Notes: a model not told the origin generated them from the sequence alone. Positions 2,714 through 14,772 are shown, numbered from the stretch's first letter. The stretch: DNA of 32,000 nt from Staphylothermus hellenicus DSM 12710 (GCF_000092465.1 NC_014205.1:930001-962000), one strand, 5' to 3'. Made by a program: numbers and translations.

Positions 2714-4579
2714 TTATGTTAGCGGCGTTATTGGGCGGTTTTCGTCTCCATATATTCTTACCTGCATTACTCTGTAATAGTAGTTGTAGATGAATACTAG
2801 TTTGGTTGCTGAAGGTACTTTTACTCCATCAATGTTTGCAACTGATATTGTTGCCCATAGGAAATACATGTGGTTGCCATATACTGGTACAAGATTATCT
2901 ACTATGTCATAGTAGAGATCAATTGTTGCTATTCCCGATGTATAGCCGTATGGGAGTTTATAGTATGCATCCATTGTTCCATTTGCAAGATATAGTGTTT
3001 TTTCAGGTGTTAAATCCACATAGTCTAAACCACCACTTATAGTTCGGAGAGAGGGTAGTATTTGGAAAAGTATAGAGTATATTCTTATACCTAGCAACGT
3101 GTTCGGCTGCATATAGGAGTATTTCCTACCATTTATTATTAGGAAGGTGCCTAGCTTAAATGGTATCGTCATGTTTCTGAAACCATATGGATAAGCTGAA
3201 TCAAAAGACATAACATATGTTGCATTTATGCTTTTAACAAACTCCCTATACTCTCCATCCGGTGCTATTATAAAATATTTTATTTCAAACCCTATTGATC
3301 CCCTGCCATTAGATATATAGCCATTATTCCATAATGTAATATTGTAGAATGGCTTGAAATAAGTAATATTAATAGAGTATCCTTCACGTGTCTTACAAGA
3401 TATCCAGTTATAAATTACTTCTAAAACACTCCTCTTAAGAACAGATAATGCCGCCAAACTAGCATTATTCAGAGACTGCTTGAAATTATCGAGGGCTTGA
3501 TAATAATCGTAATCCGCTAAGTTACCAGCTCTAAAAACATATCTGTCCCCTCCAACAATGACATCGAATGTCTTAGAGATCAATAATTCACCGGTCTCAT
3601 CATATACGCTGATAACCCCGTTTCTAAAGATTAGATCAGGGAAAAAGACCTTTGCCTCACCAGAAGAGCCGGCAACCCCCTCATAACTATTTGTTCCATC
3701 AGAAACAACTACTCTCCACCCAGGATGTAAGCCTTCAACATAGATATATTTAGGATCCCTGTTAACAGATAATACAAGTTTATCTATTTCAACATGAGAA
3801 TAGCCTCCAACACCATAGTATAGTCTCTGAGTAGTTGACCCCCTATCATAAGTTATATTAGCCCAAACATTATTGATTTTATCAAACACGTCTAAGCTAA
3901 GTATTCCTGAAGTATAATCATAACCCCCATAATAAACATATGGAGCAGGTACCGATTCCGATAGTTGCCTCCACCATCTATAAGCTCCATTCCGATAATA
4001 TATTACCTCTAGCGTTTGAGAAGGAATATTATTGCCCAGGATATACATGTATCGTATGTAACTAAACAACAGGAAACGGCGGATGCGTATTTGAAACCAG
4101 TCAATATGCTGATCAGCCGTCCCCTTGTAAGCAACATATGCCTGATCATAAAACCTACCGCTTATAGGTATATCAATAATCGCTATGGCGAAATCATTAC
4201 TGCTTTCAAGCACTAAGACTTGTCTATTTGTATCAACATAATGATTATCCGCTATAAATACTAAATTAGATGTATCATCTGTTGAAAAATCCGAATAGTA
4301 TATTGCGCTTCTATCCTCGAGAGATAATGTATAGCTTATCTCATTATATATGGTGTCGAAAGATGAAATAAACTCTTTATAGGCTTTCGTACTAGCGTAT
4401 TTTAGTGCTACAAGATCTAATGTATCAAGTTCTTGATCTATAATGTCCCAGTCATTCTTAACCGTTCCTTTGCTGAGGGATCTGGTATATAGTGTAATCG
4501 ATGTAACATAGAATAAGCTAGCTATTATTAGACCTCCTAAAATAACTATAGCTATAACTATGGGTAGTTGAGCCTTCAC
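2714..4579 (-). CDS. giant pilin-like / N-terminally anchored surface protein (621 aa)
   Basis: GTG start overlaps the upstream stop (GTGA). N-terminus MKAQLPIVIAIVILGGLIIASLFYV fits a K-A/Q-L-P class III-like site plus a hydrophobic helix. The rest is Tyr/Asn/Ile/Thr-rich and poor in charge, with at least 7 N-x-S/T sequons. Confidence 0.6.
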   Translation of the reverse strand: MKAQLPIVIAIVILGGLIIASLFYVTSITLYTRSLSKGTVKNDWDIIDQELDTLDLVALKYASTKAYKEFISSFDTIYNEISYTLSLEDRSAIYYSDFSTDDTSNLVFIADNHYVDTNRQVLVLESSNDFAIAIIDIPISGRFYDQAYVAYKGTADQHIDWFQIRIRRFLLFSYIRYMYILGNNIPSQTLEVIYYRNGAYRWWRQLSESVPAPYVYYGGYDYTSGILSLDVFDKINNVWANITYDRGSTTQRLYYGVGGYSHVEIDKLVLSVNRDPKYIYVEGLHPGWRVVVSDGTNSYEGVAGSSGEAKVFFPDLIFRNGVISVYDETGELLISKTFDVIVGGDRYVFRAGNLADYDYYQALDNFKQSLNNASLAALSVLKRSVLEVIYNWISCKTREGYSINITYFKPFYNITLWNNGYISNGRGSIGFEIKYFIIAPDGEYREFVKSINATYVMSFDSAYPYGFRNMTIPFKLGTFLIINGRKYSYMQPNTLLGIRIYSILFQILPSLRTISGGLDYVDLTPEKTLYLANGTMDAYYKLPYGYTSGIATIDLYYDIVDNLVPVYGNHMYFLWATISVANIDGVKVPSATKLVFIYNYYYRVMQVRIYGDENRPITPLT

Positions 4580-12218: not shown

Positions 12219-12992
12219 TTATTTTGTTTGGATCACTTCTACTTTATAGGGTAGATTTAGATCTATCATCGAAGTTATTACTTCTAAATCATTCTTAATG
12301 TTTTCCTTTAATTTTTCGATATCGCATTTGCCTAGGAACCCTTTCTTTTTAACATATACTCTAATATATATTATTCCACGGCTAATTGCTAGTTTTACAT
12401 CTACGAGTTTACAACCATATAGTGGAGCAAGATCTTCAACGTCTTGCTTGGTTTTATCGATTAATTCCTTGAGCATCTTGGAGAACTCCATTATTTTTGG
12501 TTCTTTTTTCTCAGCAGCATGAATAGTTGTGGGTACTATTTTCTTCTTAGTAATGAATTCCCTGTATACAGTCTTAGGTGCTTCCCGTGTTTTCTCCTCC
12601 TCATATGGTTGTATCTCGAATAACTTGAAGGTTAAGGGTTTAATTTTAGATGCGAGTATAAGTGTTGCTAAAGGTCTTAAACCAACTATTCTCGTACCCT
12701 TATCGGGATCTGTTTCGGCAGAAGAAACTATTACTCCGTGATCAATATATATAATGTATCTTTTATTGTTAAGCTCCGTAGTTAATAATACTTCTTTATC
12801 TTTACCAAGCTCATTAATCTTAAGCATATCTTCATATCCCAGTGTTATCTTCTTTAAAAACTTGCTCCGCATAAGTAGTTGGGCTTCGAAAGTAATATCA
12901 CTTAAAACATTCATTCTACCTGTATCAATTGGAAGAGACGCTATGATCTCATATACTTCTTTCTCCTCCTCGCCCAAATCTCCGCTCCTCAC
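12219..12992 (-). CDS. hypothetical protein (257 aa): two domains joined by a charged linker
   Basis: Long ORF with normal archaeal composition. I recognised no diagnostic motif. Confidence 0.65.
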   Translation of the reverse strand: MRSGDLGEEEKEVYEIIASLPIDTGRMNVLSDITFEAQLLMRSKFLKKITLGYEDMLKINELGKDKEVLLTTELNNKRYIIYIDHGVIVSSAETDPDKGTRIVGLRPLATLILASKIKPLTFKLFEIQPYEEEKTREAPKTVYREFITKKKIVPTTIHAAEKKEPKIMEFSKMLKELIDKTKQDVEDLAPLYGCKLVDVKLAISRGIIYIRVYVKKKGFLGKCDIEKLKENIKNDLEVITSMIDLNLPYKVEVIQTK

Positions 12993-13130
12993 ATACTAGA
13001 GTTAAAAAATAATGCTCCATATAATTCAAGTCTATTAATAGTTCTTGTTAAATAGATATTTAGAACACTAGATATAAGCTTAGCCCGCCGATATTGTTAA
13101 ATATTTTATGAACAAGCATGTATATGTGTA

Positions 13131-13402
13131 GTCCTGCCCAGGATGCGGTGGTTGGCTGAAGCACCTAGTAGGGCGGGTCTTAGCAACTCTAAGGATGAGG
13201 GGTTTTCCTCCCCCTCCAAGCATCTTCCCGGAGTGGTGAAGAAGATGATCCGCTCTAGGAAGGTGTGGATAGGGAGGGGGAGTGGGGTTACCCTGAATGG
13301 GGGCGAGACCAATGAAATGCCCCCAATGAACCCAGAGGGGGATGAGGCCAATGTGCCCCAAGGCCCATATCCGCGTTTATGAGCGGATATGAGCTGAACC
13401 CC
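13131..13402 (+). ncRNA. G+C-rich structured RNA, identity unresolved (SRP RNA and RNase P RNA considered)
   Basis: ~57% G+C by hand count against ~33% in the flanks, with several long helices readable by eye. G-U pairs work only on the + strand. A TATA-like stretch (13097-13108) lies upstream. Ends are approximate. Confidence 0.55.
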
Positions 13403-13425
13403 ATTACTTATAACCGCTACTATGA

Positions 13426-14772
13426 TTAAACCAATATCTGTGATATAGGTATTAGGGATGAGTATAGCAGTTTTAAATCCGACCTATAAGGTTCCGGAAC
13501 ATTAGTATTAATATTCATTATAATAACTATTTTTTGAGTACCACCAGTATTTAGGCTTACCATAAAGTTTACCAATCTATAAACTTCTTTCCATCCGCCA
13601 AGACTTATCATGAAATCTAGTAGGTCCTCGACCAATATGATCGGGGTAGAACCTTGTGAAAACAATTCTCTAACACCTCTTATAAGGACAGAATTGTCCG
13701 CAAATAATTCATATTGTTTAAAACATATAGACGACATACATTCTGTGCTTGCCTCTATTCTATATAGTGATTCTAATCCATGACCAATACTAACCTTATG
13801 TATCTCGGCGATTCCCAGTTTCCTTAATGCTTCTATATCACTAATTATTTTTGAATAAAGTTCATCCCAAGTCTTGGAGTGAGGCCTGCTAATAAACATT
13901 ATAACTTTCTTGTTACCATTAATATTGCTTAGTATTTCTTTCATAATCTCCATGATCTTTGCAGGCTTAGGTTTTTTGCTTCTAACTAATACCATGATTG
14001 AACCAGATTTTTTCAAAGATACCTTTTTGATGGAGAAATATAGTGGAGCAGATAAATCAGTGAAGTGGATATTGTAGAATAATATAATGTATCCTATCAA
14101 GAGCAGTATGCTAATAACATCAGCCCATAAATTTACCGAGTACATGAGTAAGGAGAATATTAATAAGGTGTCAATCAGTATTAAATGTGATTGCATTATG
14201 TATAGAGTATTTTTACCATTATAATATAATAGGAATACTGCTTTAGAAATATAGAGTATAAAGAACAATAGTATTATGAATAATTTGAATGCTAGGTATG
14301 AATTATCATATAATGAATAAATACTGACTAATACACTTGTAATAGTTACAATGATTATATGCATACTTACTAAAGTATTAAGTTCGTGTCCTAGATGTTT
14401 TTCCTTACTAAATCGAAGAATATTTATAATTCCGGCATAAACATCGAACTCGTTGCCCAGCATCCAAAAAGAAGAGATCTTATATATTAGCAATAAAATT
14501 ATTAGTAGAATTGCTAATACATTTATTATCCCAAACATGATCATATAGGATCCTAAAATAATAGTGTATATCAGTAAACCCGCTGATACTAAATATGTGA
14601 TAATATGTATGTTGAGAAATCTTGTAATTCCTCGAAAAGGCCGTGCATAATGAATATGCTTGTTATAGCTGTATAAACATATAAGTAGTAGGTATAAAGA
14701 TATAAATATTATAAGCCAAGATTTCTCAAGAGACGATATGGTAATGCTAATCATACCAATATAGTCTCCCAA
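13426..14772 (-). CDS. polytopic membrane protein with C-terminal degenerate KaiC/RecA-like (DUF835-type) domain
   Basis: About 8 hydrophobic segments in the first ~240 aa. The C-terminal ~190 aa (..STPIILVEDLLDFMISLGGWKEVYRLVNFMVSLNTGGTQKIVIIMNINT..) lacks a Walker A. TTG start at 14772 abuts the KaiC-like stop; alternative ATG at 14754. Confidence 0.65.
   Translation of the reverse strand: MGDYIGMISITISSLEKSWLIIFISLYLLLICLYSYNKHIHYARPFRGITRFLNIHIITYLVSAGLLIYTIILGSYMIMFGIINVLAILLIILLLIYKISSFWMLGNEFDVYAGIINILRFSKEKHLGHELNTLVSMHIIIVTITSVLVSIYSLYDNSYLAFKLFIILLFFILYISKAVFLLYYNGKNTLYIMQSHLILIDTLLIFSLLMYSVNLWADVISILLLIGYIILFYNIHFTDLSAPLYFSIKKVSLKKSGSIMVLVRSKKPKPAKIMEIMKEILSNINGNKKVIMFISRPHSKTWDELYSKIISDIEALRKLGIAEIHKVSIGHGLESLYRIEASTECMSSICFKQYELFADNSVLIRGVRELFSQGSTPIILVEDLLDFMISLGGWKEVYRLVNFMVSLNTGGTQKIVIIMNINTNVPEPYRSDLKLLYSSLIPISQILV

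Follow-up and report, generated by a model that had tools for sequence, protein, structure and literature searches.

The segment at 13084-13400 of the window (the whole 32-kb stretch of DNA analysed in this work, G000:C1:930001-962000, part of the single 1,580,347-bp contig of genome G000) is, with a probability of about 85%, a 317-bp MITE-like, non-autonomous IS607 derivative carrying the scaffold of a TnpB omega RNA. This copy has no transposase genes: it keeps just the left end (LE) with its promoter, a scrap of the tnpB zinc-finger region and the 3' RNA scaffold, and what remains of tnpB corresponds to aa 354-438 only and has no Pfam matches. The parts of the element, with the evidence that defines each of them, are:

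13084..13085, + strand: CC overlap (crossover) dinucleotide of the left junction, GG on the other strand (empty-site comparison)
13084..13130, + strand: left end with promoter (shared LE), including CGAWAYTGTTAAATATT at 13087-13106 and a TATA-like box at 13097-13108
13131..13181, + strand: coding remnant of the tnpB zinc finger (CxxC), which forms the 5' hairpin 13131-13139/13171-13179 (alignment)
13143..13397, + strand: residual tnpB C-terminal frame, a non-functional fragment (tblastn with the 441-aa TnpB described below: aa 354-438, 46% identity)
13182..13400, + strand: omega-RNA (reRNA) scaffold (covariance model match at 13182-13403, and covariation)
13401..13402, + strand: CC overlap dinucleotide of the right junction (empty-site comparison)
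13403..13422, + strand: predicted guide segment in the flanking host DNA, its length assumed to be ~16-20 nt (by analogy with TnpB architecture)

The residual frame stops at a TGA (13395-13397) lying within the conserved CTGAACC terminus. No T-rich terminator was evident after the presumed guide.

Composition of the island and searches against known RNAs

The element stands out as an island of high G+C, 54-61% across 13150-13399 against 27-39% on either side (100-nt windows), with a positive GC skew (G above C on the + strand), as the preliminary description of this DNA had reported. It folds strongly on both strands (-132 kcal/mol, z = -4.8 for the + strand; -113 kcal/mol, z = -4.3 for the - strand), and the earlier view of a structured RNA-type element on the + strand is borne out. 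The motifs quoted in that description were all found where it had placed them on the + strand: AGCCCGCC at 13082, the TATA-like TTAAATATTTTA at 13097-13108, GGAUGAGG at 13193 and 13340, and CUGAA at 13156, 13293 and 13394. The TATA-like stretch is a promoter-like box in the left end of the element. Three overlapping ORFs, formerly taken for artefacts, do exist in the island (13080-13361 and 13106-13351 on the - strand, and 13143-13382, 79 aa, on the + strand), but that dismissal does not hold for the + strand ORF, which is the tnpB C-terminal remnant identified by tblastn. A Pfam search with the 79-aa ORF alone gave no match.

Rfam 15 gave no match anywhere in the 32-kb window at the gathering score; a permissive search of 12950-13550 (E<=10) added chance-level matches of miRNA/lncRNA type only (E >= 0.17), and a scan for tRNA and tmRNA gave nothing. 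There is no existing Rfam family for the island. Like archaeal SRP and RNase P RNAs, the island is G+C-rich, structured and of similar size in an AT-rich hyperthermophile; unlike them, it matches no model, since neither RF01857 (Archaea_SRP) nor RF00373 (RNaseP_arch) matched it at the gathering score or at E<=10, in agreement with the previously noted absence of the hallmarks of both RNAs. The canonical genes for both were found elsewhere in the genome by Rfam model matches:

G000 1510496-1510790: canonical Archaea_SRP gene, 126 bits
G000 1443580-1443921: canonical RNaseP_arch gene, 162 bits

These two genes and the lack of an Rfam match rule out one of the two interpretations offered before, an SRP or RNase P RNA that is divergent or permuted. 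The other, an unassigned structured RNA, survives insofar as Rfam has no family for the island, but its sequence can be assigned to the right-end/tnpB-3' scaffold of an IS607 element. A C/D box or K-turn sRNA was also considered and rejected, the sole match being a chance-level one to sR2 (11 bits, E=7.8). The covariation-supported fold does not bring the 5' GAUGA of the island close to its 3' CUGA, which contains the tnpB stop codon. The idea that GGAUGAGG and CUGAA might be halves of K-turns found no support; the last CUGAA (13394) includes this stop codon and belongs to the conserved right-end terminus.

Copies, full-length relative and empty sites

The island is one of four copies detected by blastn in genome G000:

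G000 943100-943420: window copy (self)
G000 1364514-1364818 (L011): 79% identical to the window copy over its full length
G000 208254-208432 (L014): 178-nt core, 82-83% identical to the window copy; 3' part of a full-length element
G000 1059726-1059901 (L017): 178-nt core, 82-83% identical to the window copy

Further copies were detected by blastn in the sister genome G001 and in G014. The motif CGAAAYTGTTAAATATT was seen upstream of several copies, and a genome scan for it gave a match at G000 206522; this match lies 1.7 kb upstream of the copy at 208 kb and leads into a frame encoding a MerR-type HTH. An apparent extra copy at G000 ~724.1 kb, from an exact-motif search, was coding sequence on inspection. 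The copy at 208 kb belongs to an element of the autonomous type:

G000 ~206508-208470: full-length IS607-family element with tnpA, tnpB and both ends
G000 207139-208464: intact tnpB of this element, 441 aa, with a Cas12f1-like TNB domain (PF07282, 4.3e-15)

The tnpA of this element is split over three frames by two frameshifts, and its domains were recognised in pieces (locus L024: MerR HTH frames 260-481, 2.5e-11; Resolvase frames 408-770, 3.4e-22). The PDB matches of the 441-aa TnpB were TnpB and Cas12f structures; its RuvC catalytic D/E/D residues were looked at by eye and in partial PDB alignments only. Window positions 13188-13365 are 83% identical to the last ~180 nt of this tnpB and its right end (RE), and positions 13083-13106 align to its LE, both ends, and on the right the 3' 220 nt, being common to the window copy and the autonomous-type element. 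The same LE lies directly upstream of tnpA in the full-length element (G000 206508-206540) and at the head of the protein-less copies L011, L017 and L012. In the full-length tnpB and its G001 and G014 homologues, the "KTCPLCG...GQVFE" region is the part to which the zinc-finger remnant (13131..13181) aligns; the remnant is absent from the shorter MITE L012.

Eight TNB-domain matches and three Resolvase matches were found in the genome. One of the former belongs to the family of the island; the family's own resolvase is broken, making present-day mobility doubtful. Two IS607-type tnpA-tnpB pairs of other subfamilies were also observed: one at G000:C1:1163094-1164567 (-), a possible mobiliser in trans as its 214-aa resolvase and 402-aa tnpB frames are uninterrupted, and one at G000:C1:1317988-1319455 (+), with a TAA inside tnpB.

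The boundaries of the element were defined from two independent empty sites in G001, orthologous to those of the window copy and of L011. The left flank of the window copy (to 13083) corresponds to G001 1439738-1440522 and its right flank (from 13402) to G001 1438838-1439736; the two matches abut at 1439736/1439738, so that the flanks are directly adjacent in G001. The site reads GCTTAG-TC-ATTCC in G001 and GCTTAG-CC-CGCC...GAACC-CC-ATTAC in the window, with TC in the empty site where CC would be expected. At the site of L011, which reads TTGTTCTTG-CC-TCTTCTTCC in G001 and ...CTCG-CC-[317 bp]-CC-TCTTCTTCC in G000, the flanks overlap by exactly CC (G-CC-T when empty, G-CC-[element]-CC-T when occupied). 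The 2-bp overlap delimits the element as 13084-13400 (317 bp) plus the shared CC at 13401-13402. IS607 serine transposases, whose overlap dinucleotide is GG, characteristically leave such a 2-bp overlap and neither a target duplication nor inverted repeats (PMC4058570; bioRxiv 10.1101/2023.11.20.567912).

Conservation among the copies ends right after ...AACCCC, and the terminus RAACCCC was found in ~30 loci with unrelated flanks beyond it; the stretch at 13403-13422, different in every copy, also occurs in the G001 empty site. Since conservation of the LE motif is limited to Staphylothermus, only seven left junctions could be used for deriving a TAM, and these gave no clear motif beyond the invariant G-CC.

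The element lies antisense in the spacer (12992-13426) between two co-directional minus-strand genes (13426-14772 and 12219-12992), a spacer of ~114 bp in G001 and of 433 bp with the element in the window. Transcription from the element's promoter would proceed antisense into the 3' end of the gene at 13426-14772, which encodes a 448-aa membrane protein. The possibility that this 448-aa ORF is itself a TnpB with a minus-strand omega RNA was discarded: it has no Pfam match, and the tnpB homology and the G-U pairs place the RNA on the + strand.

Structure of the RNA and its overlap with tnpB

A covariance model (R1; 226 positions, 60 pairs) was built from seven close copies, the supported fold being taken from an RNAalifold consensus. 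A class-wide search with the 441-aa TnpB gave homologues in 79 of 301 genomes, and the loci fetched contained 38 matches to the model at the threshold of >= 45 bits (45-244 bits, each over the whole model), or 36 after the removal of two duplicate loci. The window matched at 13182-13403 over the full length of the model (239 bits), as highly as the full-length element's own RNA. For 27 of the 36 matches a tblastn check placed the RNA in the same orientation as a full-length tnpB homologue and at its 3' end, this being the position of the RNA in every full-length locus having a match (27 of 27), and a serine-recombinase tnpA preceded tnpB in at least 17 of these 27 loci. The other nine were protein-less, with no tnpB or a scrap of it, and included the window copy.

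The structure was strongly supported by covariation. Over 40 distinct sequences, 90.7% of the cells were paired, against 72.2% with shuffled partners and 38-52% with slid partners, percentages that are somewhat inflated by an alignment (A3) fitted to the model's structure, though the margins are large; compensatory changes were found in 43 of the 60 pairs, against 26.8 with shuffled partners. The scaffold overlaps the open tnpB frame in full-length copies, and part of its conservation could therefore be at the protein level. The components of the fold are:

13199-13217/13273-13294, + strand: helix 1 (comparative support)
13220-13227/13259-13266 and 13230-13236/13250-13256, + strand: subfamily-specific arm, absent from most distant homologues
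13300-04/13355-59, 13307-10/13346-49 and 13320-24/13337-41, + strand: nested domain (comparative support)
13362-13374/13383-13395, + strand: 3' hairpin, in which every pair covaries
Scaffold tail, + strand: conserved terminal motif CUGAACC

Helix 1 contains a run of three U-G pairs, each of them conserved in 29-36 of the 40 sequences. The RNA was assigned to the + strand, as had been proposed earlier from a G-U pair, because the conserved U-G pairs would be A-C clashes on the complement and because tnpB runs in the + direction.

Several of the helices previously read by eye found comparative support: the 10-bp helix 13208-13217/13273-13282 as part of the longer helix 1, the terminal hairpin 13366-13374/13383-13391 with compensatory change in every pair, and the 5' hairpin 13131-13139/13171-13179 in the MFE fold. 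Two others gave way to alternatives. The three-way junction (hairpins 13221-27/13241-47 and 13248-53/13265-70) is better drawn as the one continuous arm, and the helix 13298-13304/13319-13325 is better replaced by the nested set. Both may form in the window sequence and are less well supported than the alternatives: the earlier versions had 78-87% of cells paired with little covariation (seven close copies), compared with 84-94% and many compensatory changes for the nested versions (40 sequences).

The zinc-finger hairpin (CCUGCCC/GGGCAGG; window 13131-13179 and its equivalents in L004, L005 and L014) is also kept in full-length tnpB genes, and a G001 copy has the compensatory variant CCUGUCCC/GGGACAGG, so that this hairpin may be a feature of the RNA lying within coding sequence.

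In every one of the 27 full-length loci (L027-L056 set), the open tnpB frame covered essentially the whole scaffold. Its stop lay within +-25 nt of the RNA 3' end in 21 of the 27, and in none of them more than 30 nt before that end; in Staphylothermus the stop is the TGA within the terminal CTGAACCCC. The protein similarity of TnpB mostly ends at about aa 381 of 441. The chance of such an open frame was estimated at ~5% per locus, from which the scaffold DNA looks to be of dual use.

A shorter, diverged scaffold was found at G000:C1:1190906-1191038 (+; 77.7 bits), at the 3' end of a 34%-identical tnpB (1189872-1190936), which shows that the scaffold core is common to tnpB subfamilies in the genome. 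Three further stretches of G001 (G001:C1:1065547-1065663 on the - strand, 1516049-1516164 and 440534-440658 on the + strand) are 74% identical to the 3' half of the scaffold, and are possibly members of the 14-copy, ~260-nt MITE described in S. marinus (PMC2678158).

Relation to known systems and proposed mechanism

The island resembles the omega RNAs (reRNAs) of TnpB systems of the IS200/IS605 and IS607 families (ISDra2, SisTnpB1 of Sulfolobus islandicus, CboIStron TnpB) in that the RNA lies on the tnpB strand, starts within the tnpB 3' end, ends exactly at the right-end boundary, combines a conserved structure with a variable downstream "guide" (predicted here) and is associated with a TNB-domain TnpB. 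It differs in having no detectable similarity to a curated family (Rfam contains none), in the extra ~50-nt arm (13220-13266) of its subfamily, in a tnpB frame that in its family is open through the whole scaffold, and in that the window RNA stands without its protein gene.

Protein-less relatives of IS605 (PATEs) "often encode omega RNAs" for use in trans (Meers et al., PMC10055086), so this kind of element, a protein-less IS derivative with an omega RNA, is already known. As in the PATEs of IS200/IS605, LE, RE and the omega-RNA scaffold are kept, the coding genes are deleted, and dependence on TnpA and TnpB in trans is presumed; in contrast to them, the window element is of the IS607 type (serine recombinase, dsDNA) rather than the Y1/ssDNA type of IS605, and its LE promoter is fused almost directly to the scaffold.

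In the same genus, transposable elements of S. marinus were assigned to IS607, among them an element of two ORFs, the first of them truncated (Anderson et al. 2009, PMC2678158); it corresponds to the homologue at 834-835 kb in G001 and belongs to the same IS family. The 14-copy S. marinus MITE mentioned above is separate from it; inverted repeats on either side and a relationship to the region upstream of four single-ORF elements were described for it (PMC2678158), which makes it a different subfamily. That study predates the omega-RNA concept and describes no RNA. Against this background three results are mildly new: an archaeal IS607 omega-RNA family without an Rfam entry now has a structure backed by covariation, promoter and scaffold were both retained in each of three independent deletion lineages, and the tnpB frame is open across the entire scaffold in 27 of 27 full-length loci.

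The mechanism proposed for the window copy is modelled on TnpB systems that have been studied (PMC10055086; 10.1101/2023.03.06.531077; 10.1101/2023.11.20.567912), where the sequence directly following RE on its 3' side serves as the guide (PMC10055086; bioRxiv 10.1101/2023.03.06.531077). The LE promoter, which would normally drive tnpA-tnpB, appears here to be fused ~50 nt upstream of the tnpB 3' remnant, and may transcribe the scaffold together with ~16-20 nt of the right flank. This would yield an omega RNA with a guide (~13403-13422) matching the element's own insertion site. TnpB supplied in trans, most obviously from the 441-aa gene at G000 207139-208464, would associate with this RNA; the complex would cut the scarless empty (excised) allele beside a TAM, and repair by homologous recombination would then restore the element. 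The invariant G-CC of the left junction may be part of the TAM, by analogy with CboIStron, whose TAM (TGGG) includes the core GG. Movement would require an IS607 serine TnpA in trans, and the window copy may now be immobile, the tnpA of its own family having two frameshifts.

At least three independent deletion lineages (the window copy with L011; L017; L012 in G001) retain the LE promoter, the scaffold and RE. Mini-elements made up of promoter and scaffold could be selected "guide-RNA-only satellites" that borrow TnpA to move and TnpB to home, with a scaffold DNA that is fully dual-use, a tentative proposal which we regard as possible but rather doubtful. If true, such satellites would represent an archaeal IS607-type hyperparasite of RNA-guided homing and a natural stand-alone omega-RNA gene.

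Three other explanations were weighed. The element might be an inert relic, a decayed IS607 fragment with a fossil RNA structure, neither RNA nor element being active today; this is suggested by the broken tnpA of the sole full-length family member in the genome and by the modest identity (79-83%) between the window copy and the others. Nevertheless, the window copy reaches 239 bits over the full model, equal to the RNA of the full-length element, the copies differ largely by compensatory changes, the promoter motif of LE is undamaged, the genome holds an intact tnpB of the same family, and the independent deletion lineages have all kept promoter and scaffold, so that an inert relic seems improbable. 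That the hairpins act as DNA, as transposase-binding or recombination structures of the transposon end, would fit their location in a right end, whose terminal sequences TnpA must recognise. However, IS607 serine transposases act on dsDNA and need no hairpins (10.1101/2023.11.20.567912), conserved G-U/U-G pairs in several helices would be A-C mismatches on the complement, and the structure reaches ~220 nt inward, far past a typical end-binding site; we consider a DNA-level role very unlikely.

A stand-alone cellular RNA gene, be it an SRP or RNase P RNA in divergent or permuted form or some new housekeeping RNA, could be argued from the stable folding of a G+C-rich island that has a TATA box in front of it and no Rfam match, in the genome of an AT-rich hyperthermophile. 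This explanation is scarcely tenable, given the canonical SRP and RNase P genes elsewhere, the lack of the block at the orthologous site of the sister species, its multiple copies and homology to a transposon end, and the scrap of tnpB coding sequence that it holds; nor was conservation at a syntenic locus across genera, as a housekeeping role would imply, seen. The reading as a non-autonomous IS607 derivative with an omega-RNA scaffold removes a false lead, since neither a new housekeeping RNA nor a permuted SRP or RNase P RNA is present here, and it accounts for a class of G+C islands in Staphylothermus genomes, which it interprets as guide-RNA scaffolds borne by transposons. It also provides a covariance model, exact element boundaries and two natural empty sites. 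The TnpB/omega-RNA pair at G000 207139-208470 is a hyperthermophilic candidate for a possible heat-stable RNA-guided nuclease, and the promoter-fused protein-less copies are predicted to be naturally occurring minimal units for guide-RNA expression.

Two more small cassettes rich in G+C begin with the same LE promoter (GCC..GAAACTGTTAAATATT), at G000:C1:4364-4540 (+) and ~438600-438926 (-), and carry a different internal RNA. The first of them also ends in the same RE hairpin and CTGAACCC, with a match to the covariance model at 4441-4539 (59.8 bits). Both cassettes are probably mobilised by the same transposase as the family of the island.
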